DNA from: a virus
Taxonomy: Duplodnaviria; Caudoviricetes
Reading direction: 5' to 3' (one strand)
Virus record (IMG/VR): IMGVR_UViG_3300042525_000250
Coordinates: 1-53,048 of that record
DNA length: 53,048 nt
A program made the position numbers and the translations under genes. This document shows positions 4,159-35,423 of this stretch, in pieces. Position 1 is the first letter of the stretch, and every line of letters starts with the position of its first letter. The notes under the pieces were generated by a model. That model made no database searches, was not told the DNA's origin, and saw only the letters and a program-made list of their open reading frames with translations.

Positions 4159-4177
4159 AGGATATACCGTATATCCT
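4159..4177. promoter_or_regulatory. Palindrome copy 1, AGGATATAC-C-GTATATCCT
   Basis: Perfect 9-1-9 inverted repeat ending 11 bp upstream of a TTGACA box. Confidence 0.85.
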
Positions 4178-4968: not shown

Positions 4969-4995
4969 GGTTAGGATATACCGTATATCCTAACC
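4969..4995. promoter_or_regulatory. Palindrome copy 2 (extended GGTT...AACC)
   Basis: GGTTAGGATATAC-C-GTATATCCTAACC, intergenic. Confidence 0.85.
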
Positions 4996-5307: not shown

Positions 5308-5450
5308 ATTAGGATATACTGTATATCCTAATTGATACTAGTTCCCGTGTTGACGGCGAGCTATCGTGGAGTTACTGAGGAGCAAGCAATAGGATATACA
5401 GTATATCCTATGATAACTGTTTCCAGAGGAGACGGCGAGCTATCGTGGAG
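5308..5450. repeat. Tandem ~80-bp duplication containing palindrome copies 3 and 4
   Basis: TAGGATATAC-T/A-GTATATCCTA at 5310 and 5390, each followed ~20 bp later by GACGGCGAGCTATCGTGGAG. Confidence 0.9.
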
Positions 5451-7129: not shown

Positions 7130-7707
7130 GTAAGGATAACAAAGCACGCGAAGCACTCAAAGAACTAGGCATTAGCTTAGAGAAGACAATAAACTGGGTT
7201 AAGGCATCTAAAGAGCAGATGAACGTCATAGCGTGTACACGCAGTAAGAACAGCTCAGTGGAGAATATAGAGGGTGATGCAGACCATGTGTATATCCCTG
7301 TGTGCGGAAATATAGAGGTTAAGACGTTTTTGGAAGTGAATAGAGAAGAGATGGAGATGATGTGGACAAACGAGAAGGTCGATGGGGCGGAGGATGCGTA
7401 CACTACGTTATATATGAAACACATCCCGTTTGGTGGGACTGCGGAGATAGCATGGTCGATAGAGCTGTTGCGTGACTTGGTATCACCGTATTACTTAGTA
7501 AGGCTTGGACGGATGCAGGGCACACTAGCTTCAATGCGCATGACAACAGAGCAGATGCAAGCGGCGTTTATTCTGCAACCTGTGTTTGCTGAGGTGTCAA
7601 ACTTGCTGGTGTGCAAACACTTTCCGAATTTAATATTAAGTCAGTATAACAAGGCGATAACTGTTCCTAAAGAAGAGGAGCAAAAACAACAACATACCGT
7701 CCCATAA
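7126..7707 (+). CDS. Hypothetical protein
   Basis: 193-aa ORF with ATGA overlap and GGAG RBS. Confidence 0.75.
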   Translation: MSKDNKAREALKELGISLEKTINWVKASKEQMNVIACTRSKNSSVENIEGDADHVYIPVCGNIEVKTFLEVNREEMEMMWTNEKVDGAEDAYTTLYMKHIPFGGTAEIAWSIELLRDLVSPYYLVRLGRMQGTLASMRMTTEQMQAAFILQPVFAEVSNLLVCKHFPNLILSQYNKAITVPKEEEQKQQHTVP

Positions 7708-7710
7708 CGC

Positions 7711-7739
7711 TTGACTTAGGGTATAAAAGGGTGTATAAT
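7711..7739 (+). promoter_or_regulatory. sigma70 promoter
   Basis: TTGACT-17 bp-TATAAT. Confidence 0.85.
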
Positions 7740-7779
7740 ATGTACCAAGAGATGAGAAAAGCATCTCGAAACAAAACAA

Positions 7780-7798
7780 AGGATATACGGTATATCCT
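7780..7798. promoter_or_regulatory. Palindrome copy 5
   Basis: AGGATATAC-G-GTATATCCT in the transcript leader. Confidence 0.85.
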
Positions 7799-7981: not shown

Positions 7982-8101
7982 AATAATGACGTAAGCCCTA
8001 TCTAGTAGTGGGTTAAAACACTAGAGGGTAGAGGAGTGGGGGTCACCATGTAAAGTTCAAAAACCTGCTTGCTCTACCACTTATAAATCAAACACTTACG
8101 C

Positions 8102-8130
8102 TTGACATAGCCTACCAATAGGCGTATAAT
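8102..8130 (+). promoter_or_regulatory. Consensus sigma70 promoter
   Basis: TTGACA-17 bp-TATAAT. Confidence 0.9.
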
Positions 8131-8181
8131 ATGTACCAGATGTAAAGAGTCGTCCCCTCAAGGGACTGCAAACTGAATCGG

Positions 8182-8202
8182 TAGGATATACGGTATATCC
8201 TA
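8182..8202. promoter_or_regulatory. Palindrome copy 6
   Basis: TAGGATATAC-G-GTATATCCTA. Confidence 0.85.
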
Positions 8203-8405: not shown

Positions 8406-8989
8406 ACCACGTTCATTTAACAAAAGGTAGTGGCAAATTAGCTGGTATCACCAGCATCAATACACCTACATCAACCAACCCATTCTGCCAATCCATGCAG
8501 AAAACAGACAGCGTGTGCAAGTCATGCTACGCACAACGCTATGAGAAGCTACGCCCTAATGTAGTGACAGCGTTCGAGCGCAACAAGTTTTTATCCGAGA
8601 GAGAGTTACTACCTCAAGAGATACCCGCTATCAATGAACAGATAGCACGGTTCGCAAGTTACGGCGAACTCATTAACATGATGCACTTTATTAACCTATT
8701 GCGCATTGCGTTAGCTAACCCGCGAACCATCTTCACACTGTGGACTAAACGCTATCGTATTGTACAGCGCGTGCTTAAGCTAATGGGTAAACCCGACAAT
8801 CTTATCCTTATCTATAGCAGTCCTATAGTAGGTAAGGTGAGCGCACTACCTAAAGGCTTTGACAAAGTATTCACTGCGTTTGCTAAAGGTACGGACACTA
8901 CTGACATTAACTGTCACGGGGCGTGCAACGACTGTCGTTTGTGCTACTCACACAACAACACAACATTCATCAATGAGATTATTAAATAG
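8402..8989 (+). CDS. Gp88-like Cys-rich (radical-SAM-like) protein
   Basis: C-x9-CxxCYA motif, RFASYGE, WTKR and C-terminal CxGxCxxCxxC. Confidence 0.65.
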   Translation: MNHVHLTKGSGKLAGITSINTPTSTNPFCQSMQKTDSVCKSCYAQRYEKLRPNVVTAFERNKFLSERELLPQEIPAINEQIARFASYGELINMMHFINLLRIALANPRTIFTLWTKRYRIVQRVLKLMGKPDNLILIYSSPIVGKVSALPKGFDKVFTAFAKGTDTTDINCHGACNDCRLCYSHNNTTFINEIIK

Positions 8990-9007
8990 GATATACGGTA
9001 TATCCTA
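8987..9007. promoter_or_regulatory. Palindrome copy 7 (its first TAG is the upstream stop codon)
   Basis: TAGGATATAC-G-GTATATCCTA. Confidence 0.85.
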
Positions 9008-9025
9008 ATCAACTGGAGAACTATC

Positions 9026-9877
9026 ATGACATTATCAACATCAGCAATGCTTTGCACCTTAAACATCTCAATCTGGACAGCACGCAAGCTCGACAAGAAA
9101 GTATCACAGGATGTGGACACAGCTAACTCAACTCGCACCAAAGCAGGTAACTATCACAAGAACCTGCTGGCAGGTGACGACTCACTTGCCAAGATACAAA
9201 AGATTGCGAGCGAGGCTCGCACCTACCACTCACGGTACACATCGCCTTGGAATGACAACGGTCAGCGTCTACTGACCACCGCTTACTTCCTTGAGTACAA
9301 GCGTACGATGGGTGACTACGAGCGCAAGTTCTGGGATGAGGTCGATGCGTTCCTACCTCAGTACGGTCTTAAGATATCAGCGGCGGCGTTTCAATTAGGT
9401 AAGCTGTTTGACCGTGACGAGTACCCCGAAGAAGATAAAGTCCGCAGTAAGTTTAGCTTTGGGATTAACTTCACCCCAGTACCAGAGTCAGGTGACTTCC
9501 GTGTAGACATTCAATCAGAGGAGGTAGCTGAGTTACGTCGTCAGTACGATGAGATGTATGAGTACAACATCGCTAAGGTTAATCGTGATGCGTGGGATAG
9601 GCTGTATGACACGCTTACCCAACTGAGCTTTGGCTTGCGCACTAACGATGATGGTACAAAGGGTAAGATATACGACAGCGTGTATTCATCAGCGTCCGAG
9701 CTGTGCGAGTTACTGCGTCACCTCAATATAAACAATGACACGCAACTGGAGGATATGCGCCAGCGTCTCGAAGATACCATCATGGGTATTGATACGAAGG
9801 ACATAAAACAGAGCGACTTCATGCGCTCACAAATCAAAAAAGATGTCGATGCTATGCTCGACAAGTGGAACGACTAG
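9026..9877 (+). CDS. DUF3150-like protein
   Basis: LNISIWTARKLDK, TSPWNDNGQRLL, LGKLFDRDEYP and PVPESGDFRVD motifs; this family is usually found beside AAA/VWA genes. Confidence 0.7.
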   Translation: MTLSTSAMLCTLNISIWTARKLDKKVSQDVDTANSTRTKAGNYHKNLLAGDDSLAKIQKIASEARTYHSRYTSPWNDNGQRLLTTAYFLEYKRTMGDYERKFWDEVDAFLPQYGLKISAAAFQLGKLFDRDEYPEEDKVRSKFSFGINFTPVPESGDFRVDIQSEEVAELRRQYDEMYEYNIAKVNRDAWDRLYDTLTQLSFGLRTNDDGTKGKIYDSVYSSASELCELLRHLNINNDTQLEDMRQRLEDTIMGIDTKDIKQSDFMRSQIKKDVDAMLDKWND

Positions 9878-9886
9878 GAGAACATC

Positions 9887-10282
9887 ATGGGATACCGTAG
9901 CACAGTAGCATTTGTGATTAGTTTTGAAACAAGAGAACAACTAGACAACTATCTAGCACCACGTCTGCTAGATGAGAACCTTAAGAACGATAGAGAAAAC
10001 TTCTCGCGTATCGCTTGGGATGATGCGTCTGTTATGTATTACTCGGAAGAAATAAAGTGGTATGACGAGTACGAAGATGTCAGAGCTCTAACTAAGTTAT
10101 ACAAGGGTGTTATCGAGGCGGGAGGTGCATACCGTTTCATCCGTGTGGGTGAGGACGATAGAGATATAGACGATGAGTCGGGCGACTCAGATAATGTAGA
10201 GTCTTTCTATGATGACTTCTACCCAGTAACAACAATACAAACCCCAACCACTATCAAATTAACATTCGGAGAAGAACAATGA
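9887..10282 (+). CDS. Conserved phage hypothetical protein
   Basis: MGYRSxV, IKWYDEY and FIRVGED motifs; good RBS. Confidence 0.75.
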   Translation: MGYRSTVAFVISFETREQLDNYLAPRLLDENLKNDRENFSRIAWDDASVMYYSEEIKWYDEYEDVRALTKLYKGVIEAGGAYRFIRVGEDDRDIDDESGDSDNVESFYDDFYPVTTIQTPTTIKLTFGEEQ

Positions 10283-11349
10283 AACCATACAGCTCAATTA
10301 CTATGCAAAACGCAATCGACCTTATCAACGCAATCGGCGACACGACCACAGTCTTGGTACAGGGCGAGATGGGGATAGGCAAGTCATCTATTCTTAAATC
10401 CCTACAGCAACAGCACCCCGACCATGTGGTGTGCTATGTAGACATCACGACTAAGGATGTTGGTGACTTCCTTGTACCACAGGTGCGCCAGCTAGACGGT
10501 ACGTCTGTCTGCTCATTCATACCCAACGAGGAGTTTGGCTTTCACCTCAACAAGCCTGTGATTATTATGCTTGATGAGATAGGCAAGGCTAGTAAGTCTG
10601 TGATGAATGCGTGTCTTAGACTCATGCTCGAGCGTAAGCTCGGCACACATAGTTTGCCCGAAGGCTCTATAGTATTTGCTACTACTAACCTATCAGCAGA
10701 GGGTATCGGTGATAATCTGCCACCTCATGCAAGAAACCGTGTGGACGTGGTTAAGGTACGCAAACCAACCTCAGAAGAGTGGCGTCTTGGCTTTGCTATG
10801 GGTGCAGGTGTTGACCCAGTGGTTATTGCGACAGCTAACGAGTACCCTGCTATGTTCGCATCGTTCGAAGACTACGAGAAACCAACTCAGAACGAGTACA
10901 TCTACGACCCACGAGTACCACGAGCGGCGTTCGTTACACCACGCAGTATGGAAGCGGCAAGTAATATCCTCAAGCGTTGCCGTCACCTACCAGAAGACGT
11001 GCTATACCATGCGCTTATTGGTGTGATTGGTGAGCGTGCGACTATGGATATGATGAACATCCTCAAGTTAGATAACACCATGCCCGCATGGCGTGAGATT
11101 GTATCTGAGCCAACTACTACACAAGTACCAAGTAACGGCGCATCAGTCTGTCTTATAGTCTCTAAGGCTTTGCATAACGTAGAGAAAGATACGTTCGATG
11201 CGTGGATGACGTACTTAAACCGTATGACCCGTGAGGCGCAAGCTATGTTCGCTATGTCAGTGATGAGCGGTAAATCCCCCAAGCGTGACATCGCAGTACG
11301 CAACAAATCATTCACCTCATGGTGTGTAACTAACGGCTACTTATTCTAG
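10279..11349 (+). CDS. MoxR-like AAA+ ATPase
   Basis: GEMGIGKS Walker A, IMLDE Walker B, ATTN sensor I, RNR arginine finger, TPRS sensor II. Confidence 0.92.
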   Translation: MKPYSSITMQNAIDLINAIGDTTTVLVQGEMGIGKSSILKSLQQQHPDHVVCYVDITTKDVGDFLVPQVRQLDGTSVCSFIPNEEFGFHLNKPVIIMLDEIGKASKSVMNACLRLMLERKLGTHSLPEGSIVFATTNLSAEGIGDNLPPHARNRVDVVKVRKPTSEEWRLGFAMGAGVDPVVIATANEYPAMFASFEDYEKPTQNEYIYDPRVPRAAFVTPRSMEAASNILKRCRHLPEDVLYHALIGVIGERATMDMMNILKLDNTMPAWREIVSEPTTTQVPSNGASVCLIVSKALHNVEKDTFDAWMTYLNRMTREAQAMFAMSVMSGKSPKRDIAVRNKSFTSWCVTNGYLF

Positions 11350-11358
11350 GAGATAATC

Positions 11359-12528
11359 ATGAAAGCAGAAGACCGCATACTCAAGGCGCACATTGCGCTG
11401 ATGCAAGACACCCGCACCTTAGCCTACTCTGGCATTATCATGGTGGGCAAAGCAGTCATTACCGATGACATAGACACAGCCGCTACCAATGGACGTGATG
11501 TGTTTTATGGTCGTGCGTTTATTGACAGCTTAACTGACCAAGAGATACGCGGTCTTGTACTGCATGAAGCCAAGCACAAACTCTACCAGCACTTCTTTAT
11601 CTGGCAGAAACTATTCGAGGAAGACCACGAGCTTACGAATGCCGCGTGTGACTTTGTGATTAACCTCGAGATACTAGACATTGATAGGGGCGGTAGCTTT
11701 ATTAAGTTGCCCGAGTGTGGGTGTATCGATGAGCAGTATCGTGGTATGAATACCGCAGAGGTATACGCTAAACTCAAGGAGCAGTATGGTGATAAGCAAA
11801 GCCGTGCGAGTAAGGGTGGTAAAGGATTACCCGAAGGGTTAGATGAACATCAGTGGCAAGATGCCGTGTCGCTGTCGCCCGAAGAGAGGGAACAGTTATC
11901 TCGTGAAATCGATAGCGCAGTCCGCACTGGCGCACTGCTGGCAGGTAAACAAGGCGGTGATATTGACCGCAACTTCGAAGCTCTTATGGAATCGAAAGTA
12001 GACTGGCGTGAGCAACTGCGTGAGTTCGTATCATCAACGTGCGCTGGCAAAGGTGACAGCACATGGGCAAAACCAAGTAGACGCTGGCTTTCTCAAGATA
12101 TCTATATGCCCAGTCAGATTAGCGAAACAATAGGCTCTATATGTGTTGCGATTGATACATCGGGTTCTATTGATGACGAGGCGATTACCAAAGCCTTGAG
12201 TGAGGTGGTAGCTATATGCGACAATACAACTCCAGAGAAGGTTGACCTTCTCTACTGGGATACAGATGTTGCATCTCATGAGCAGTACCGCGAGGATAAC
12301 TACGCGGGTCTAGTTAACTCTACTAAACCTGCTGGCGGTGGTGGTACAGACGTAGGCTGTGTGATGCAGTATATAGATGACAACAAGCTCAAGCCAGAGT
12401 GTACGATTATTATCACTGACGGTTACACGGACTTTCCTAGAGAGCACCCTACGTACCCTGTGATATGGGTTATTGTTGGCGGTAGTAATGTCGTGCCACC
12501 GTTCGGTAGTGTGATTAGGTTAGATTAG
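11359..12528 (+). CDS. Metallopeptidase + VWA domain protein (DUF2201-like)
   Basis: TAATNG, HEAKH zincin motif, DTSGS MIDAS, GGGT and IITDG. Confidence 0.92.
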   Translation: MKAEDRILKAHIALMQDTRTLAYSGIIMVGKAVITDDIDTAATNGRDVFYGRAFIDSLTDQEIRGLVLHEAKHKLYQHFFIWQKLFEEDHELTNAACDFVINLEILDIDRGGSFIKLPECGCIDEQYRGMNTAEVYAKLKEQYGDKQSRASKGGKGLPEGLDEHQWQDAVSLSPEEREQLSREIDSAVRTGALLAGKQGGDIDRNFEALMESKVDWREQLREFVSSTCAGKGDSTWAKPSRRWLSQDIYMPSQISETIGSICVAIDTSGSIDDEAITKALSEVVAICDNTTPEKVDLLYWDTDVASHEQYREDNYAGLVNSTKPAGGGGTDVGCVMQYIDDNKLKPECTIIITDGYTDFPREHPTYPVIWVIVGGSNVVPPFGSVIRLD

Positions 12529-12530
12529 TC

Positions 12531-12791
12531 ATGATTGAAGTATCTCGTACTTTAACTGAAGGAGAATGGTGGGTATCACCAATAGGTCGTAATACATTTG
12601 GTGAGCCTCACTCTACCTACCCACTTAATCGGAGCGTACTCGACTTAGAAAAAGAATTACCTCCCTTGTTATATGGTAGATACTGTATGTTGCGTATAGC
12701 AAAACATGGGGAACAGCATGAGGGACTCGGAGTTGTTTATAAGTACGTGGATGGTGAGCCCTATAAGTTCTATATATGTGAGGAGGAGTGA
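12531..12791 (+). CDS. Paralogue array member 1
   Basis: Ends ELPPLLYGRYCMLRIA...EGLG...FYICEEE. Confidence 0.85.
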   Translation: MIEVSRTLTEGEWWVSPIGRNTFGEPHSTYPLNRSVLDLEKELPPLLYGRYCMLRIAKHGEQHEGLGVVYKYVDGEPYKFYICEEE

Positions 12792-13066
12792 TGATTAGGT
12801 TACAGCAAAGGATATCTGAGGATGGGTGGATGATAACTCCCTATAATCCAGAACCCCATAACCCAACAGTTCACGATGAGCCAATGTCTAAACAAAAATA
12901 CATATGTACACTAGACAACAACCTACAAGATGACCTGCTTCCATTAGTATACAAAAGATACTGCCTGTTGAAGTTAGCCCCATCAGATGAATGGGTGAGT
13001 GGGGTAGGTAAAGTAATTAGATACAACAACGGTACTTGCCAGTTCTTTATATATGAGGAGGAGTAG
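12791..13066 (+). CDS. Paralogue array member 2
   Basis: Ends DLLPLVYKRYCLLKLA...SGVG...FFIYEEE; TGATG coupling. Confidence 0.85.
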   Translation: MIRLQQRISEDGWMITPYNPEPHNPTVHDEPMSKQKYICTLDNNLQDDLLPLVYKRYCLLKLAPSDEWVSGVGKVIRYNNGTCQFFIYEEE

Positions 13067-13410
13067 TGATTAGAATTAGATTCTTTGACGGTAAAAATAT
13101 TGTGCAGGTAGTAAAAGAAATATTTCCTACTGAGCATTATGGAATACCAGAGCAGATGATAGCTCATAAAGTAGCCCAAGCATCAAACGGGTATATTTCT
13201 TTTGCATCAAATCCATTTAGCCAAGAGTTTACAACGGGCGTAATGCAAGCAAATAAAGCACCCTCAGAAATCATACGCTTTAAGTCCCTGTCTATGCATA
13301 TACAGGAGAAGGTGAGCTTGCTTAAAGTAGGTGAGGTAGGTGAGTGGCTTGAAGGTATAGGAGGTAAAAGTATTAATGGTGCGTACTATATATGTGAGGA
13401 GGAGGAGTAG
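13066..13410 (+). CDS. Paralogue array member 3
   Basis: Ends IQEKVSLLKVG...EGIG...YYICEEEE; TAGTG coupling. Confidence 0.85.
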   Translation: MIRIRFFDGKNIVQVVKEIFPTEHYGIPEQMIAHKVAQASNGYISFASNPFSQEFTTGVMQANKAPSEIIRFKSLSMHIQEKVSLLKVGEVGEWLEGIGGKSINGAYYICEEEE

Positions 13411-13703
13411 TGATAGCCTTTAAATGGGATGACAAAGTAAAGCGTACTTGTAGAGTGAGAGGTGTTGATGTAGGGGTAGGGATAGAACTTTTTCAAACGG
13501 GTATTTTTAATACTGAGGGCTATTCTAAGTACCCTACTGATTGTGTTACAGAACTTTATTTCGATGACCTGCCAGATATTATCCAAGCTCGTGTAACTAT
13601 GTTTATGTTAGTAAAACCTTTGCAGCAACATATAGAAGGTGTAGGGGTTTATGCGACTGACGGGAATGTACATTCCTTTATGTATATCTACGAGGAGGAG
13701 TAG
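13410..13703 (+). CDS. Paralogue array member 4
   Basis: Ends DLPDIIQARVTMFML...EGVG...MYIYEEE. Confidence 0.85.
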   Translation: MIAFKWDDKVKRTCRVRGVDVGVGIELFQTGIFNTEGYSKYPTDCVTELYFDDLPDIIQARVTMFMLVKPLQQHIEGVGVYATDGNVHSFMYIYEEE

Positions 13704-13990
13704 TGATAGCATTTTACTGGTTAGATAAAGAAACGGGGGAGTGTACAGTTAAGGGGGTGCGTAATGGATATCCTGTAGCATTAGTGCATAGCACTATAAA
13801 AAACCCAGAACCCGATTCAAGATACATTACGTATTTTGGGGAGAGGGGTGAGCGTACTCATATACTGCTACTACCTAAATACATTCAAGAAAGAGTATCA
13901 GTATTACGAGTTGCTTCTTTTAACGAGTACATAGAAGGCATAGGCATTAAACTGGGGGCTGAGGTATGCTACATTTGTGAGGAGGAATAA
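13703..13990 (+). CDS. Paralogue array member 5
   Basis: Ends LPKYIQERVSVLRVA...EGIG...CYICEEE. Confidence 0.85.
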   Translation: MIAFYWLDKETGECTVKGVRNGYPVALVHSTIKNPEPDSRYITYFGERGERTHILLLPKYIQERVSVLRVASFNEYIEGIGIKLGAEVCYICEEE

Positions 13991-14209
13991 TTGACGTTAT
14001 TAGTAGACTTAGGTAAGAAAACTGCTGTACCATTAGATGACGCTCTCCCTACTAGGGAGATGAAAGAAATACAATTTGAGGAGGTTAGCGAATTAACCCC
14101 GCCTGTACCCGATAACATAGCTTTACTGCAAGTTGCGCCTGTTGGTGAGATTGTAGGTGGTGTCGGTGTGAATAGGGGTGACGGTATATTTTTAGTGTGT
14201 GAGACGTAA
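13991..14209 (+). CDS. Paralogue array member 6 (minimal form)
   Basis: Ends NIALLQVAPVGEIVGGVG...FLVCET; TTG start right after the previous stop. Confidence 0.75.
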   Translation: MTLLVDLGKKTAVPLDDALPTREMKEIQFEEVSELTPPVPDNIALLQVAPVGEIVGGVGVNRGDGIFLVCET

Positions 14210-14215
14210 AAAGAA

Positions 14216-14239
14216 GATTCCGTACGCAAGTACGGAATC
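14216..14239. terminator. 10-bp hairpin closing the array
   Basis: GATTCCGTAC-GCAA-GTACGGAATC; A-rich run on the left, so the U-tail would be on the minus strand. Confidence 0.55.
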
Positions 14240-14337
14240 CCTAAGAGAGGAGTAACACATGAAGCACAAGACTCTAGGATAGGTAGAGATATGTGTGAAT
14301 ACTCTAGCATAAATAATTTAAGTAGCAAGAGGTCGAT

Positions 14338-14574
14338 ATGATTAAGGTTGTAGAAATTCGTAGTGATGCGTCTAATGTTGTGGAGGATGCTGTAAATAGG
14401 CTTAGTAGTGCAGGGCTTACTATGCAGTTCATAGATAGACTAACACTTAAGGTATGGAACGGTGACCCCAACTGCCCAGTGCATATGATATGGTTTGGCT
14501 CACTCAATGGGCAGACTAAAACGGTAGTAGTGAACAGAATAATTAAGGAGCTGTGTGATGGCAAAGACGCCTGA
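14338..14574 (+). CDS. Hypothetical protein
   Basis: ORF with GAGG RBS. Confidence 0.6.
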   Translation: MIKVVEIRSDASNVVEDAVNRLSSAGLTMQFIDRLTLKVWNGDPNCPVHMIWFGSLNGQTKTVVVNRIIKELCDGKDA

Positions 14575-14887
14575 AGGTGAGATTAAAGACCAAGTACGCA
14601 AAGTGCTTGATGAGATGGGTGCGTATTACTTCTTCCCTGCGGCTAATGGGTATGGTCGCACTGGTATACCAGATGTGATTGCGTGTATCGGTGGGCATTT
14701 CATTGGTATAGAGTGTAAGGCAGGAAGTAAACAACCTACAGCTTTGCAACAACGCGAGCTTGATAACATCGAGAAGGCAGGAGGAACAGGTCTCCTCGTT
14801 AACGCCGACAACATCGACAATTTAGAAAACTATTTGAGAGAGTATTATGAGAGATATAGACTCAGCAAGCTGGGATGCAGACTATGA
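14558..14887 (+). CDS. VRR-NUC / PD-(D/E)xK nuclease (possible resolvase)
   Basis: TPEGEIK, GIPDVIAC, IECKAG and PTALQ motifs. Confidence 0.88.
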   Translation: MAKTPEGEIKDQVRKVLDEMGAYYFFPAANGYGRTGIPDVIACIGGHFIGIECKAGSKQPTALQQRELDNIEKAGGTGLLVNADNIDNLENYLREYYERYRLSKLGCRL

Positions 14888-30026: not shown

Positions 30027-30055
30027 AAAAGGGGGCTTAACGCCCCCTCTCTTTT
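30025..30055. terminator. Bidirectional terminator between the convergent arms
   Basis: A6-GGGGGC-ttaac-GCCCCC-TCTCTTTT. Confidence 0.85.
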
Positions 30056-33000
30056 ATGGATGAACTCTATTGTATAAGGCTTTAGATTTACGTTCTAAGT
30101 TGAGGATGCGCTCTTCAATGCTATCGAGCTGTGTACGTTTATCAGCAGGAGACATAGAGTCGTTAGGTATAGCCATAATAATACGCTTCTTACGGTTTAA
30201 CGCATCTACCTTTGTGATGATATGGTTTAGCGCAGTGTGTGCGCCTTTGTTTAACATATCTCTATTCTCTTCTTTATACGCTCTAGCTTCCTCAAAGCGT
30301 TTCTCACCTTTAAGCATATTGTATGACCTAAAGGCTTTCTCTTGCTCTTCGCGGAGTTTATAGAAGACGTCTTGTGACTCATCAGAGTGAGCTTTCCCTA
30401 GTAGTGACGGCATTCCAGGAATACTTCTAAACGCATCAGCCCCAGACTTATCAGCATAAGGGATGTCCATACCTTGTCTAAGCCCATAGTCAATAGTTGC
30501 AAGTGCGGCTGCCCCTGTATACCCAGCAAACCCCTTAATGAGATGGTCGGCACTGATAGGAGATATAAACCCAGTCTTACCTAAAAGTTTAGAAAATTCT
30601 GATGTATCGCTTTTATACTGATACTCTTTATCTGCGCCCACTAGTCGTTGAGGTACTACGCTTCTACCTGTGAAGAAGTCATGGTTAATAGACACTTCAA
30701 GGATAGGTTTAATAATAGTAGGCCCAACAGGCGCATTCATAAACGCCGCTACCACTGCAGCCTTCATTGCCTCTTTAGCTAACTCAGGATTTTCTGTGCC
30801 CTCATTCATTAAGTAAGTATATGCATGGTTACCCGTTACAAAAGGCAGTGCAAACACGTCAGCACGAATAGGTAGGGTGATATTAGATTTAACGCCCAGT
30901 GCTCTTAATGGGAAGATGTGAGTATCCTTCTCTCTTGAGTCTTTATTTTTAAACTCATCGTCATCATCACCGTGGTCGGCTAAAGCGTTGTATAACCACA
31001 ACATCGCCATCATCTGAATAGTAGTACCAGCCATAGTAGCTAGAGCTGCTTTTCTTTCTGAAGGTGCAATCCCTCTCCCAGATATTGCATTGTACGCCGC
31101 GCGGTTAGCTTGGATGTATGCACCTAAGAAAGGAGTAATTTGTCTAATAGAATCGAGTCCAGCACTTGCACCGCGTCTACGGAAGTTAATCACCTCAAAG
31201 GCTCTTTCTTGCGCTATAGCTTCAGCTTCGGGTCTACCCTTCATCTCTTTCATAGTGCGGTTATAGATTGCTTGGCGAACGGCGTTATCACCAGCCATAG
31301 CAAAATGCTCTGCCATATCTTTAATCTTACCAAAGGCACTCTGCTTTCCAGCATGATGCCCACCATACGCAAGGTCATGGATACTCACACCGAACTGGTC
31401 TGCAAAATCTTTTTGTCCCACTGCACCGATACGTTTAAGTCTTTCATGGGCTTTAGTTGTACTAAATGCTGTACCGACAAATTCTTTTAAGACTTCAAAA
31501 GGTAGCATTAGAGGACGCTTTACACCTGATGTGTACATCGCTGTGTACGTATCTTGAGGTAGCTGAGAAAGAGTAAACAGTGGATTATATACGATACAGT
31601 TACGCAAGAACGTAGCCAGCTTAACACCCATACTTAATGCACTACGTGGCACAGGAGATACACCGTTGAAAGCAAATCGCATAATAGGGTCTTCAAACTT
31701 CCAATACTCTTTTACACCATTGCGATAACATACAACAGCAGTAGGACCATTTTTATCTAACTCAGTAACAGAACCTTGAGGCAGTACATCCTCTGCAACA
31801 TCAACAAGCTCTCTAGACTTATCTGCTCTAATAGCTTTTACATAACTATTAACAACCCATTTCTCCATGTTAAGGATAATGTCATCTACTTCACGAGTTT
31901 TAGACCCTTTTATTCCAGGCTCTGCTTGCCCTGCCATGAGACTACCTGACTTACGGAAGTTACCCGTTGCCATCTGAGCATACATCTCATCAGGGTCTTG
32001 AACATCCATAATACGGTTAAAGGGCACATAAGCCACAGCATCCATATAGTTAGAGGCTTGCTCTGGTGAATACCTACCTGATGCAACAAGCGTATCAATT
32101 ACATTTTTTCTAACTCTATGCCACATCTCCATAGGCTCTCTAAACTCAGGCATAGAATTAAATGCAGCTAGATGAGTTGCTACTTCAGCCTTTGACATAT
32201 GCAGGTTTTTGGCTAGGTCTAATATTTTTCTAGCCTTTCTTAAATATGCGTGGCGAGCAGGACCGCTTATAGTTTGAGCTGTGGCTTTAATGTTATCTGC
32301 CGCTCTATATATCTCATCAATACGAGCCGCTACCATGAACTCCCCAAAGTGTTTTGAAGTTTCTTCAAAAGTCTCACCGTATTTAGTTGCAATATCACTA
32401 ATTAGCTGACGGATTCTAGGCATATTATCTGCACTATCTACGCCTTCCCACATATGAGTAGCAGAGCTTTTCTTCATACCACCTCTAAGTGCTGCCTCAC
32501 CCGCCGTTGATGTACTATGCATGGTTTGAGACTGTGATACTCGCATTAGGAAATCACGCATTTGGTCCCATGTAATCTGAGACCCTTTAACCATCTTAGT
32601 TAATTGATTTCTAAGTGTGTTGATATACCGCGCATCATAACTACTTATGCTAGTTTCTATTATATCTGCGGTTTTTTGTATGTTCTCTCCTATAGTAAGA
32701 GGAGCATTAGCCGCAGGTTTTGGATGTCCTTGCTTTCTAGCTTCTGTTGCCGCTTGAGATGCTTGTCCTTGTGGAGTAAATGAAAACGCTGTACCTTCTC
32801 TCGGTGCACGAGTAGCTGTTTGTGACTCTCTACGCAGTGCTTTAGCTGCAAGATGGTGGATATCTGACTCGGTGATACTAAGTCTTGCACCAAATGTGGT
32901 GCGTACCCAGTTTTTAACCGCTGATATCGCACGTTTTACAATAGGTAGGTTAGGCGCGTTCTCAACTAGGTATGCTAAGGTTTCTTCACCTTTTAAGTGT

Positions 33001-35423
33001 TCTGGCGTATTCTCAGGAACAGCTTGTCTTGCACGGTCAAACGCTTCACCTTTAGTAGTCAGAGCTTGAGAGGTTAAATCCCCCCAGACTTTATCGCCCA
33101 CCATACCTCGCATACCAACGTGTACACCCACTTCATGCATCGCTACTTTAGGTAGCGTCTCTGGGGTAAGCTTGCTGGCAACTAAATGCACCTCACCTTG
33201 AGGTGTGGTAAGCCCTTGTACTCTTTCTGGATGTCTTCCACCAGGTAATGTATCTGCCGTATCATGCAAAGTGAGCTTACCGCTCTCAACAAGGCGTTTC
33301 ATCTCAGGTGTAAGATGAGGTTGCAGTGACTCTACAGTATGGTTTGTGTTTACTCCTTCTGGTGCAACAGATAATCTAGGTAATGTTTTCTTTTCTGTAC
33401 GCAGTGCTCTAATCTTATCAGATAGCTCTTTTTGTTCATCGGGGTCTAAGCTTTCTTCTTTTTGAAAGTTTAATGCGGAAATCTCTTCATCTACATCTAG
33501 CTGAGTACGTCCAGTATAAGCCTCTTGCTCTGGCGTTTTTTCTGATGATTTCTGCCGTATGTTTAAAAATGCATCAAAGAGAGCCTGCTCTTTTTCATCT
33601 GCAGATTGTTGTTCTTGAAAATCATTAGCTACGACAGTTCGACCTACTTCAGGTGCAGGCGTAGGCGTTTCTTCCTCTACTTCAGGCGGTGGAGAAGGCG
33701 GTGGTGTATTATCTTCTTCTGATTTTTGCTGTGCATCTCTCTTTGCTTGTCTATCTTTTGCTTCTTGGTCTGTACCAAAAATAGCATCCATAAGGCTTTG
33801 GTCTTCGCCATCCGAGATTCCTTCTTCCTCTACTACAGGCGGTGGAGGAGGTGGGGGTGGAGGTGTATTATCTTCTTCCTCTTCCTCTTGTTCATCTACT
33901 ACTGGAGTAGTTTCTACTATAGGTGCAGCTTTGGCTTTCTTAGGTTTAAGAAGCTCTGGAGGGAGTTTTAAAGTTGTTGCTTCTTTTAAAGGTACGTTCT
34001 CTTTAGTCCACGTTCTACCATCTTTATGTGTATATGTTGCATTGTAAAGAGCTGTGCCATCTTCGTGCGTGCCTACCTGCTCATAGGTAGCAGATATAGT
34101 TTTATTCTTTACCGTACCTTTACTTTCAGGTGAAGGGGGTACCTCGTCCTCTTCTTCATTTTCTGGTGGAGGAGGTGGGGGTGGAGTTTCGTCTGTTGTT
34201 TCTTCTATACCTGCTTGAGCCTTTGCATTTGATATAAATGCATTCCATGCATCGTTATTGAACTCTGCGGGCAGACCGTGTCTACCTTGGATGTTTTCTC
34301 TTTTAGAGATAATACCTTCAGCCTCTGCGATACCTTCTGGCGTAGAGTAGTCAATCTTAGTTAGAGATTCAAAAAGCTTACGATGCTCATTCCTAGAAAT
34401 ACCTACATTCTTAAGCTCACGAGATACATTTAAAGGCCCACTAACTTCTTCTTGAGCAGGCTGGTCTTCTGGTTTAACAGCTTCTTCTGGTTTTGCAGTA
34501 GGCATAGCTGCGCTAATGCCTTTAATACCGCCACCGCCAATAGCACCTAACGCTGCACTGACTTCTCTTTCTTGAGCTGCTTCTGGAGTAGATACATCTT
34601 GGTTACCACCTACTTGCTCTAGTCCCGTTTGTGCATACTCTGTTGCACCTTCAGCTCCTGCACCGATGCCTCCTTGCTTAACTATTTTTAAAGCAGTATC
34701 AAGAGCACCGCCTTTTATAGGCGCAGCACCTTCCATAAGAGCTGCACCCGTTTCACGAACCTCTGCATTTACGGCACTGCGTAGAGAGGATGGGAGAAGT
34801 CTAGAACCGCCCAGTAACAATTTATCTGTAAGTGCATCCATCGCCGCAGCTGGCATGGCTGTGAGTAAAGCTTTGGGGATGTCTTCTTTCCCACCTTCAT
34901 GTTGCTTACCACGCATCTCAGTATATTCTTGCATATAAGAAGGGAAAAAAAGACCTAACGCCCCACCAATAACTGCACCAATAGCTGTACCAGCACCGGG
35001 AACAACAGAACCTATTGCAGCACCTGCTTCCGCTCCAGCCCACGAACTTGCAAGTGATACGGGTAGTTGAGGCAGTACGTTACCAGCAGCTGCTTCTAAG
35101 GCATCAATTGGATGCTCACCGATATCTTTTACTGAACTGATAGAACTTGGGTTTTCTTTCTGCACCTGCTCTGCTTGCTCACGTACCCGTTTACCATAGC
35201 CAGATATCCCTTCTGACCCTACTGCATTACCGATATCTTCAAGCGGCTGCCCTAAAAAAGCATTAGCCATATGAGCCGTAGTAGACCTAGCAGTATTACC
35301 AAACTCACTACCTTTTTCTTTAGGCGGAAGAATATCTTTCTCTATAACCTGAATAATTTCTTCATGAGACATATCATCTGGAAATTCTACATTTCCAACA
35401 CCAGTGACTTCTACGACTTGCAT
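30054..35423 (-). CDS. Large internal virion/ejection (polyvalent) protein with zincin-like HExxxH and LPD38-like C-terminus
   Basis: 1789 aa; MHEVGVHVG, YVPFNR, INF.RRG...PFLGA and N.DFFTG..VVP motifs; poly-P/poly-E linkers. Confidence 0.7.
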   Translation of the reverse strand: MQVVEVTGVGNVEFPDDMSHEEIIQVIEKDILPPKEKGSEFGNTARSTTAHMANAFLGQPLEDIGNAVGSEGISGYGKRVREQAEQVQKENPSSISSVKDIGEHPIDALEAAAGNVLPQLPVSLASSWAGAEAGAAIGSVVPGAGTAIGAVIGGALGLFFPSYMQEYTEMRGKQHEGGKEDIPKALLTAMPAAAMDALTDKLLLGGSRLLPSSLRSAVNAEVRETGAALMEGAAPIKGGALDTALKIVKQGGIGAGAEGATEYAQTGLEQVGGNQDVSTPEAAQEREVSAALGAIGGGGIKGISAAMPTAKPEEAVKPEDQPAQEEVSGPLNVSRELKNVGISRNEHRKLFESLTKIDYSTPEGIAEAEGIISKRENIQGRHGLPAEFNNDAWNAFISNAKAQAGIEETTDETPPPPPPPENEEEDEVPPSPESKGTVKNKTISATYEQVGTHEDGTALYNATYTHKDGRTWTKENVPLKEATTLKLPPELLKPKKAKAAPIVETTPVVDEQEEEEEDNTPPPPPPPPPVVEEEGISDGEDQSLMDAIFGTDQEAKDRQAKRDAQQKSEEDNTPPPSPPPEVEEETPTPAPEVGRTVVANDFQEQQSADEKEQALFDAFLNIRQKSSEKTPEQEAYTGRTQLDVDEEISALNFQKEESLDPDEQKELSDKIRALRTEKKTLPRLSVAPEGVNTNHTVESLQPHLTPEMKRLVESGKLTLHDTADTLPGGRHPERVQGLTTPQGEVHLVASKLTPETLPKVAMHEVGVHVGMRGMVGDKVWGDLTSQALTTKGEAFDRARQAVPENTPEHLKGEETLAYLVENAPNLPIVKRAISAVKNWVRTTFGARLSITESDIHHLAAKALRRESQTATRAPREGTAFSFTPQGQASQAATEARKQGHPKPAANAPLTIGENIQKTADIIETSISSYDARYINTLRNQLTKMVKGSQITWDQMRDFLMRVSQSQTMHSTSTAGEAALRGGMKKSSATHMWEGVDSADNMPRIRQLISDIATKYGETFEETSKHFGEFMVAARIDEIYRAADNIKATAQTISGPARHAYLRKARKILDLAKNLHMSKAEVATHLAAFNSMPEFREPMEMWHRVRKNVIDTLVASGRYSPEQASNYMDAVAYVPFNRIMDVQDPDEMYAQMATGNFRKSGSLMAGQAEPGIKGSKTREVDDIILNMEKWVVNSYVKAIRADKSRELVDVAEDVLPQGSVTELDKNGPTAVVCYRNGVKEYWKFEDPIMRFAFNGVSPVPRSALSMGVKLATFLRNCIVYNPLFTLSQLPQDTYTAMYTSGVKRPLMLPFEVLKEFVGTAFSTTKAHERLKRIGAVGQKDFADQFGVSIHDLAYGGHHAGKQSAFGKIKDMAEHFAMAGDNAVRQAIYNRTMKEMKGRPEAEAIAQERAFEVINFRRRGASAGLDSIRQITPFLGAYIQANRAAYNAISGRGIAPSERKAALATMAGTTIQMMAMLWLYNALADHGDDDDEFKNKDSREKDTHIFPLRALGVKSNITLPIRADVFALPFVTGNHAYTYLMNEGTENPELAKEAMKAAVVAAFMNAPVGPTIIKPILEVSINHDFFTGRSVVPQRLVGADKEYQYKSDTSEFSKLLGKTGFISPISADHLIKGFAGYTGAAALATIDYGLRQGMDIPYADKSGADAFRSIPGMPSLLGKAHSDESQDVFYKLREEQEKAFRSYNMLKGEKRFEEARAYKEENRDMLNKGAHTALNHIITKVDALNRKKRIIMAIPNDSMSPADKRTQLDSIEERILNLERKSKALYNRVHP

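Follow-up and report, generated by a model that had tools for sequence, protein, structure and literature searches.

A cassette array of six small paralogous genes behind an AAA+ ATPase and VWA-peptidase pair in a tailed-phage genome

What is the role of a row of six small, related genes that stands directly behind an AAA+ ATPase gene and a VWA-peptidase gene in a phage genome, and how is such a row built, kept and changed? The question arises at positions 12531-14239 of the window, by which we mean the whole IMG/VR virus record IMGVR_UViG_3300042525_000250, 53,048 bases long. An earlier reading of the letters alone, referred to below as the first-pass annotation, had proposed an expandable cassette array of specificity factors serving the upstream AAA/VWA module. 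We followed up this proposal with sequence comparison, analysis of related viral loci and metagenome contigs, substitution rates and structure prediction. The AAA/VWA-peptidase pair is known, and the array family beside it is absent from four profile libraries. The six genes are paralogues, their organization as an expandable and swappable array is well supported, and the last of them is the ancestral core. For the function of the array proteins we can offer only a tentative reading, as partners of the module, and we weigh it below against its rivals.

Results

Six consecutive genes are paralogues

The six open reading frames (ORFs) lie head to tail on the plus strand and fill 12531-14209. Their products, with lengths in amino acid residues (aa), are as follows:

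12531..12791, plus strand: array member 1 (type A), 86 aa, an ORF ending YICEEE; the orthologue in related locus L027 is 99% identical
12791..13066, plus strand: array member 2 (type B), 91 aa from the ATG at 12791; orthologues in L006, L027 and L007
13066..13410, plus strand: array member 3 (type C), 114 aa, GTG start, longest insert
13410..13703, plus strand: array member 4 (type D), 97 aa, GTG start
13703..13990, plus strand: array member 5 (type E), 95 aa, GTG start
13991..14209, plus strand: array member 6 (type F), 72 aa, TTG start; a single small domain makes up the entire protein

For member 2, an alternative GTG start at 12788 would give 92 aa; the ATG at 12791 restores the MIR.. start seen in other members.

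The six ORFs are true paralogues. In blastp with composition correction off, 12 of the 15 member pairs match at E<=1e-3, the best being members 1/2 (7e-14), 4/5 (3e-12) and 3/5 (2e-10), and the pairs 1/6, 3/4 and 4/6 fall short. A profile that includes the six members finds the six array genes and nothing else in the record (E 2e-27 to 2e-19), as is expected by construction. Identity between members is 14-41% in global alignments and 25-51% in local blastp matches. Members 1 and 2 have an N-terminus in common, as do members 4 and 5, and a C-terminal part is common to members 3 and 5 (51% over 39 aa); thus, the members are mosaics. All six proteins are small, acidic (isoelectric point 4.2-5.6) and cytoplasmic. 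The first-pass annotation had claimed tandem paralogy, N-termini shared in pairs and an array start 2 nucleotides (nt) after the VWA gene, and all three stand: blastp, the profile and pairwise alignment bear out the first two, and the array indeed begins 2 nt past the VWA stop codon. It had also called the array AT-richer than the upstream module. The G+C content is indeed lower (40.4%, against 47.5% in the module and 43.2% in the whole window), but the difference is modest and the small-ORF region downstream has a similar value (40.9%).

A recurring junction couples each gene to the next

Successive units meet at a short repeat, and a stem-loop closes the array:

12770-12792, 13045-13067, 13386-13408, 13682-13704 and 13969-13991, plus strand: five copies of a 23-nt junction repeat, from a repeat search of the window
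14214..14241, no strand assigned: G+C-rich stem-loop, stem 14216-14225/14230-14239, loop GCAA, with an A-run before it

The junction pattern has four matches at no more than 3 mismatches, against 0.00 expected from 100 shuffles. At each junction, the terminal Glu codons of one gene (GAGGAGGAG) lie 5-8 nt upstream of the next start and form its Shine-Dalgarno sequence, and the stop and start codons overlap as TGATG, TAGTG (three times) and TAATTG, an arrangement that had been correctly recognized from the letters. The array units share only stretches of 23-67 nt at 64-88% identity.

An EEE tail had further been counted as part of a conserved C-terminal module, and this does not hold, as member 6 ends CET and its single-copy orthologues in relatives end non-acidic or singly acidic, e.g., QQM or NEM. 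Only members with a further member behind them carry the Glu tail; thus, it may exist mainly as the ribosome-binding site of the next gene, whose demands may have shaped it.

The closing hairpin is real, and a stem-loop at the array end is kept through different sequences in 17 of the 21 downstream regions of relatives that were folded. The GNRA character of its loop is not maintained: TTGC and other loops occur in relatives, and in L003, L001 and L005 the loop is TTGC, the reverse complement of GCAA. Since the A-run stands upstream and there is no T-run downstream, the stem-loop would be a canonical terminator only on the minus strand, although the nearby genes are all on the plus strand. Directly after it lies a 7-codon mini-ORF, MKHKTLG (window 14259-14282), with a strong Shine-Dalgarno sequence and an ATG context kept in close relatives.

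Cassettes come and go in front of a constant core gene

Viral loci (28 in number) were retrieved with the VWA protein, and a hidden Markov model (HMM) of the six members was then run on them. The core gene, to which member 6 belongs, stands behind the VWA gene, usually directly, in 27 of 27 related loci that extend past this gene; the 28th contig ends inside it. In 18 more distant loci (VWA 63-70% identical), the family is represented by a lone orthologue of member 6 with 71-78 aa. Where the junction was read, in nine single-copy loci, the VWA stop and core start overlap as TAATG (seven loci) or lie 7 nt apart (two loci), and in three other distant single-copy loci a homing-endonuclease gene stands between the VWA gene and the core gene. 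Judged from these orthologues, member 6, with its 72 aa, is the ancestral, always-present core gene and not one of six equal units.

Close loci (VWA 86-97% identical) present a different picture. Written with the type letters A to F of window members 1 to 6, their arrays read BCEF, AB'EF, BE'CF (order changed), DCF, DF, EF (three times) and F. Including ABCDEF of the window, there are 8 architectures in 10 arrays, with copy numbers of 6, 4, 4, 4, 3, 2, 2, 2, 2 and 1, and all insertion and deletion breakpoints found by blastn fall at the junction or start repeat. This bears out the prediction that units can be added, lost and swapped, as well as the prediction that copy number would vary in relatives (1-6 copies among ten close genomes). 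An expandable, swappable cassette array is therefore well supported.

Metagenome contigs carry the same kind of change, with the scope that joints seen in contigs establish presence, not frequency. In three of four lake-water runs, contigs join across whole cassettes at the repeats. Run X8 has the joints 12526>13704 (which leaves EF) and 12527>13979 (which leaves F) beside pieces of the full array, which means that variants coexist within a single sample. Run X6 has the joint 12531>13704, and run X12 has 12779>13399, which removes B and C and yields an architecture without counterpart among the loci; run X4 has no joint inside the array. Collapse during assembly was considered as the cause of the copy-number differences and rejected, because the stretches shared by the units are as short and diverged as given above, and because EF also occurs in three separate contigs and as joints in two runs.

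The boundary between the VWA gene and the array also takes up foreign genes. In 5 of the 27 loci, this exact position is taken by an HNH homing-endonuclease gene, either of the phrog_374 kind (E 1e-56 to 8e-60) or of the HNH_3+AP2 kind:

L005:2901-3560, homing-endonuclease insert
L007:1297-1959, homing-endonuclease insert
L019:2720-3343, homing-endonuclease insert
L024:7149-7643, homing-endonuclease insert
L025:3469-3951, homing-endonuclease insert

In the window, no endonuclease gene stands at the array. The ORF inserted in L005 and L007 duplicates the last 12 residues of the VWA protein at its own end, and in both loci the 3' end of the VWA gene (window 12330-12489) is replaced; joints 12329>12493 in runs X4 and X8 fit a variant of the L005/L007 type.

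Array genes are under relaxed purifying selection and are exchanged between genomes

Ratios of nonsynonymous to synonymous substitution rates (dN/dS) were obtained by the Nei-Gojobori method, and for segment comparisons the genes were split at the last 44 residues. The VWA gene has a dN/dS of 0.07-0.17. The core gene (F) has 0.2-0.45 in pairs differing at the protein level, and distant orthologues have 0.28-0.41 (B), 0.30-0.49 (C), 0.41-0.49 (D) and 0.27-0.32 (E). These values mean that the array ORFs are genes under purifying but relaxed selection. Types B, C, D and E also remain intact ORFs in genomes with a VWA synonymous divergence (dS) of 0.7-0.95.

The same values bear on whether the extra copies are merely neutral duplicates in decay, in which case only the 72-aa core gene would matter and the others would be by-products of unequal recombination at the junctions. 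Decay would fit a nonsense codon in L001, the reduction of L002 to one copy, and a dN/dS that exceeds that of the VWA gene and is near 1 in some very close pairs with few changes. Against this stand the intactness of types B to E over such divergence, the dN/dS of 0.27-0.49 overall and the value of 0.06-0.25 in the C-terminal module of type C, and we regard neutral decay as highly improbable.

The division into a constant C-terminal end and a variable rest, as first proposed, holds for two of the types. In type C, the N part has a dN/dS of 0.45-0.99 (3.14 in one close pair, with very few changes) against 0.06-0.25 in the C-terminal module; in type B, the respective values are 0.2-0.98 and 0.12-0.22. 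Types D and E have little contrast between the two segments.

Exchange can be followed at member 2. From member 1 across the junction to about nt 24 of member 2, the window and L027 are ~98% identical; a middle of ~125 nt is then unalignable, with insertions and deletions, before ~98% identity returns from the LPLVYKRY codons onwards. The middle of member 2 is thus replaced as a block between two genomes ~98% identical on both flanks. A target of a diversity-generating retroelement was rejected, as the block has insertions and deletions together with changes at all four bases (a reverse transcriptase was not searched for). Moreover, the synonymous divergence of the array is 4-9 times below that of the adjoining VWA gene. 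Between the window and L006, dS is 0.219 for VWA and 0.040-0.057 for B, C, E and F; between the window and L003, it is 0.187 for VWA and 0.049 and 0.020 for array genes. The low dS in the array indicates that genomes have recently exchanged array segments.

Rapid turnover, dispensability and exchange between genomes would also be expected of a second possibility, namely that the array proteins are stand-alone host-takeover or counter-defence proteins, acting on their own in an insertion-tolerant spot at the end of an early/middle operon, with an arms race against the host driving the turnover. The two kinds of homing-endonuclease genes in 5/27 loci mark the slot as a hot spot, the proteins are acidic and small, and the G+C content of the array is close to that of the neighbouring accessory small-ORF region. 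On the other side, the core member still follows the VWA gene where VWA identity has fallen to 63%, and the linkage data given below also bear on this possibility.

The core gene encodes an unnamed domain of about 70 residues

An AlphaFold2 model of member 6 (22-row alignment; predicted local distance difference test score, pLDDT, 87.1) predicts one small alpha/beta domain. Strands span residues 2-6 and 11-14 and are followed by a short bridge (26-27), a helix (39-46) and a hairpin (59-70), the order being strand-strand-strand-helix-strand-strand. In the alignment, the paralogues differ in length in the stretch from the first hairpin to the strand that precedes the helix. In terms of the model, the variable middle noted in the first-pass annotation is thus a region between strands 2 and 3 at which one small alpha/beta domain takes up insertions. 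Only L35, L46 and G59 are invariant or nearly so in the family alignment, which has no conserved cleavage motif.

Searches of Pfam-A, NCBIfam 20 and PADLOC-DB 2, the last covering anti-defence and defence families, gave 0 families for all six members, and PHROGs v4 gave only phrog_30245 for member 6 (E 0.081). As the domain is in none of these four profile libraries, it appears to be unnamed so far. A sequence profile search of the PDB gave 0 matches at E<=10. With the member 6 model, Foldseek against the PDB reached E 2.6 at best, and the best VIA-align match was a dCache sensor domain at Z 4.7 (root-mean-square deviation 3.3, 64 aligned), with PAS/GAF at Z 4.0-4.5, all below the background of Z 7-8 stated for this tool.

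A profile search of 1.84 billion representative proteins found 83 matches at E<=1e-3, and a word-indexed search found 103 relatives; the sole name from any source is "hypothetical protein". Of the 83 matches, 32 are at least 140 aa long with the domain at or near the C-terminus, and 28 of these 32 form one family, mostly of ~290 aa. A model of one protein of this long form (pLDDT 88.5) consists of an N-terminal sheet, a long helical hairpin and then the strand-strand-strand-helix-strand-strand domain. Foldseek gave E 0.11 at best for the long form, and the VIA-align matches (Z up to 9.1) were confined to the helical hairpin 112-192, which is a frequent arrangement. In the ESM Atlas, neither the long-form protein P0020 nor member 6 has a usable match, and no described family was found for P0020 or for a 117-aa member met in the third clade below. 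We draw no function from the fold searches of member 6 or the long form.

The upstream module appears intact

The array follows four genes on the plus strand:

9026..9877, plus strand: DUF3150-like protein, 283 aa; Pfam DUF3150 E 0.0037, 17.1 bits, under the cutoff of 24.9
9887..10282, plus strand: 131-aa ORF between the DUF3150-like and AAA genes; no known family
10279..11349, plus strand: AAA+ ATPase, AAA_5/MoxR-like, 356 aa; phrog_1297 E 2e-47 and Pfam AAA_5
11359..12528, plus strand: Zn-metallopeptidase-like N-domain (HEAKH) fused to a VWA domain (DTSGS, metal-ion-dependent adhesion site, MIDAS), 389 aa; Pfam and PHROGs

The Pfam AAA_5 match is made by a thin margin (23.3 bits against a cutoff of 22), and the translation contains Walker A GEMGIGKS and Walker B IIMLDE; the homologue in phage MinM2 is annotated as a MoxR family ATPase. 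Homologues of the DUF3150-like protein, 41-43% identical, lie beside AAA/VWA genes in the second clade described below, and its MinM2 homologue is annotated DUF3150. The 131-aa ORF is unrelated to the array family (hhalign probability 0.1%). For the VWA-peptidase protein, Pfam gives DUF2201_N at 82.3 bits and DUF2201 at 77.6 bits, and PHROGs gives phrog_1314 (E 1e-91). Residues H69, E70, H73, D266, S268 and S270 are invariant among 19 sequences, down to 38% identity, and so are T353-D354 (MIDAS DxSxS...T...D). With its HExxH and DxSxS motifs intact, the machine is intact as far as its sequence goes. The PHROGs label "HNH endonuclease" for the VWA family was set aside, as the Pfam domains do not support it.

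A MoxR-vWA pair with an N-terminal metallopeptidase has been described in jumbo phages (Iyer et al. 2021, Viruses 13:63, PMC7824862), and the upstream genes of the window share its architecture, an AAA_5-like ATPase followed by HExxH plus VWA (DUF2201_N + DUF2201). The available part of that account has no small partner proteins. We found no experimental function for the AAA/VWA-metallopeptidase pair; the one proposal, as given in the same part of that paper, is virion assembly with proteolytic processing. The literature on DUF3150, phage DUF2201 and MoxR/vWA metallopeptidases, among the matches listed, describes no such partner proteins either.

The assembly proposal opens a third possibility, in which the array proteins are clients or regulators of the machine, i.e., substrates, pseudo-substrate inhibitors or assembly clients, for example processed by the HExxH domain or restraining it. 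Besides the proposed role in assembly and peptidolytic processing (PMC7824862), the pair in phage PBECO4 adjoins tail-sheath and head-completion genes, and translational coupling to the VWA gene would give matched amounts. However, the module sits among replication genes, not structural genes, in the window and in N4-like phages; six diverged, dispensable substrates are hard to rationalize; and the array proteins have no conserved cleavage motif. We give a client or regulator role little credence.

The array family lies near the module in three phage clades

Three phage clades, with 27, 6 and 4 loci, have family members downstream of the VWA gene. In clade 2, with context for 6 loci, the order is AAA - VWA - DUF3150 - ORF278 - long form - Hjc-like nuclease - DNA polymerase, and the long form, of ~300 aa ending in the array domain, occupies the slot that matches the window array. 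In clade 3 (4 loci), the order is AAA - VWA - ORF319 - 290-aa long form - two small ORFs - 117-aa member, which places the 290-aa and 117-aa members 1-2.6 kb downstream of the VWA gene. Clade 3 was found from a sequence match, P0028, that was chosen blind to gene context. Subfamilies P0024, P0037 and P0038 were not found in viral contigs, and P0037 and P0038 not in metagenome contigs either. Thus, the linkage to AAA/VWA loci that had been proposed is found in 3/3 clades with readable context; what it consists of is synteny, in clades that are related to each other, and a link between the array family and the module is suggested at this strength. Docking to the module, target binding and an anti-defence role, as put forward in the first-pass annotation, are hypotheses backed by this synteny.

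The module itself reaches much further. Homologues of the VWA-peptidase occur in 826 phage records (tblastn), including N4-like, rV5-like and jumbo phages. In MinM2, the order is MoxR - small ORF - DUF3150 - three tandem paralogues - VWA; the paralogues MM2_66-68 (L054:5114-6140, minus strand) have 111-115 aa and match each other at blastp 4e-14 to 3e-33. In the Escherichia phage Murica, four small genes resembling each other, gp013-016 (L037:7426-8450), of 77-87 aa, directly follow the VWA gene, and gp013/014 match at blastp 8e-11. Both resemble the window array in having 3-4 head-to-tail small paralogues (77-115 aa) directly beside a DUF2201 VWA gene. They are unrelated to the window family in sequence (MinM2, HMM E>1; Murica, hhalign probability 0.3%), and the MinM2 array, unlike that of the window, stands upstream of the VWA gene. 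The SBP1, LIT1, PBECO4, MTATph1 and phiA009 loci have no tandem small paralogues at blastp E<1e-4. The count of 2 in 7 cultured-phage loci with tandem small paralogues beside the module, made without a proper control, is suggestive of a module-linked role and supports it weakly.

These observations bear on the possibility of stand-alone takeover or counter-defence proteins. It gains from the fact that the module is widespread without the array family. It loses from the presence of members near the module in clades whose VWA proteins are only 33-49% identical, while the neighbour genes differ; from the unrelated tandem arrays of MinM2 and Murica, which hint at a role linked to the module; and from the lack of a PADLOC, PHROG or Pfam family that would back an anti-defence label. 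We regard the stand-alone explanation as the main rival, though rather unlikely. A complex prediction of the VWA protein (19-row alignment) with Mg and member 6 (22-row alignment) scored 0.00 in both runs, made without controls, and is evidence neither way.

Neighbouring genes and distribution of the phage

Other features around the array are the following:

8098..8138, plus strand: sigma-70-type promoter-like site, TTGACA-17-TATAAT, 12/12 (match 8102-8130); consensus match only
4159-4177, 4973-4991, 5311-5329, 5391-5409, 7780-7798, 8183-8201 and 8988-9006: copies of the 19-bp palindrome AGGATATAC-N-GTATATCCT
14555-14887: Hjc-like resolvase, 110 aa; Hjc Holliday-junction resolvase family E 1e-5

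The promoter-like site at 8098..8138 is the likely start of a transcription unit that holds the module and array. From the match at 8102-8130 to the stem-loop, all genes are on the plus strand and closely packed; thus, the module and array probably form one transcription unit. A second copy of the promoter-like element lies at 7707-7747, and the two copies are 80% identical. The palindrome occurs in 7 copies against 0 expected, all in the 4.1-9.0 kb early region, ~35 nt downstream of each of the two promoter-like elements and, in its last copy, 20 nt upstream of the DUF3150-like gene. It resembles either a processing site or the operator of a dimeric regulator. A Cys-rich 195-aa ORF at window 8402-8989 matches Pfam GP88 (E 2e-9). 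Downstream of the array come a 78-aa ORF, the Hjc-like resolvase and then the DNA polymerase; homologues of the resolvase hold the same place after the array slot in clade 2.

At an estimated completeness of 84%, the window carries genes for structural proteins, a large terminase, a family-A DNA polymerase, a helicase and a primase. The terminase shares 50-58% identity with its counterparts in Pelagibacter phages HTVC027P and HTVC023P, in the freshwater Synechococcus phage MinM2, in a lake phage and in a record of an uncultured seawater phage. The largest ORF (30054-35423, minus strand, 1789 aa) has Gly-rich GGAGGAGGTGGGGGTGGAG repeats at 33845 and 34169. Megablast of window 9000-14300 against phages gave no match. 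The array region is widespread in lake-water metagenomes, with at least half of the sampled words present in 18 of 24 runs among the matches listed, 3 of which are possibly the source sample; RNA runs contain only a small share of the region's sampled words (5-14% in three runs). A scan of genome contigs for the array family gave one 1.8-kb contig from a metagenome bin, which is too short for context and was not taken as evidence of a host.

Discussion

The reading that we prefer, tentatively and at a little less than an even chance, is that the array proteins are interchangeable accessory partners of the AAA/VWA-peptidase, with the contact, the adaptor role and the targets all inferred. We propose the following course of events. 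The 72-aa last gene would have been the original single partner of the MoxR-like AAA+ ATPase and the VWA-Zn-peptidase, and this core gene would have been duplicated stepwise in one sub-lineage. The conserved helix and C-terminal hairpin (LP..I..R...L..A......G.G....Y) would be the constant part recognized by the machine, and the N-terminal hairpin and the insert before strand 3 would vary so that each copy serves a different client. Translation would proceed by coupling, the Glu codons acting as the ribosome-binding site of the next gene with stop and start overlapping, and recombination between junction repeats would add, delete and reorder whole cassettes. Since the ribosome-binding site and overlapping start of each following gene are part of the unit before it, expression would be undisturbed by a change of cassettes.

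Several findings weigh against such a partner role. An acidic Glu tail could act as a ligand for the MIDAS site of a VWA domain; however, EEE is absent from the ancestral member, and the alignment has no invariant acidic residue able to serve as a MIDAS ligand. A dN/dS near or above 1 is seen only in very close pairs with few changes and never clearly above 1 at adequate counts, and the N-terminal domain of the long form is a conserved family (28/32 in one cluster), unlike a variable target-binder. The extra copies are dispensable, as the E copy of L001 has a nonsense change, TGG>TGA, at codon 6, and copies can be lost down to one, as in single-copy L002, where the VWA stop is directly followed by what is left of a junction. 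Closely overlapping genes are common in phages, and since the three clades belong to related phages (AAA 32-58% identical), their shared position may reflect gene order that was inherited. Finally, tblastn of member 6 against 50,697 phage records found nothing better than E=3, and the profile found no family member in 4 cultured relatives or in the SBP1, LIT1, Murica and MinM2 loci; tblastn of P0020 against phages likewise gave no match.

A bolder form of the partner reading would make the module a programmable remodelling and degradation machine that is aimed at host proteins, e.g., those of defence, through a swappable library of adaptors, which phage populations would reshuffle by means of the junction repeat, with the arrays of the cyanophage MinM2 and the coliphage Murica as convergent versions. 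We think this improbable.

Small adaptors and clients of AAA+ machines are known, such as ClpS and SspB, Rubisco with CbbQO, and Rsa4/Ytm1 with Rea1, and the MIDAS of a VWA domain takes an acidic ligand residue. The likeness to the window lies in the idea of a constant docking surface with variable clients, and the window paralogues are acidic, five of them with Glu-run ends; however, no sequence or fold relation of the window family to these proteins was found, and the family has no invariant acidic residue. For the dynamics of the locus, the nearest described case, as far as the available part of the source goes, is the segmental amplification of anti-defence loci driven by homing endonucleases in T-even phages (Chihara et al. 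2026, Nat Commun 17:3468, PMC13096335). Both involve fast copy-number change of a tandem phage locus, and HNH genes lie at the VWA/array boundary in 5/27 relatives of the window. In that part of the T-even account, the amplification yields fresh identical repeats, whereas the window units are old and diverged (proteins about 30-50% identical) and break at the 23-nt junction. Fresh segmental amplification of the SegB type was accordingly rejected for the window, as units of 14-41% global identity are not near-identical.

The finding offers several starting points. The unnamed domain of ~70 aa beside a widespread pair (826 phage records) is a concrete handle on that pair, and its members are the first candidate partners, clients or regulators. 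The junction neatly illustrates how a recombination-proof unit can be made from a coding tail, a ribosome-binding site and an overlapping stop and start. Natural variants, whose genomes are otherwise nearly the same but carry 1-6 copies in different orders, offer an experiment, already set up by nature, on the contribution of the copies. Even if the array proteins should prove unrelated to the module, the locus would still be a well-documented hot spot of accessory-gene turnover in phages.

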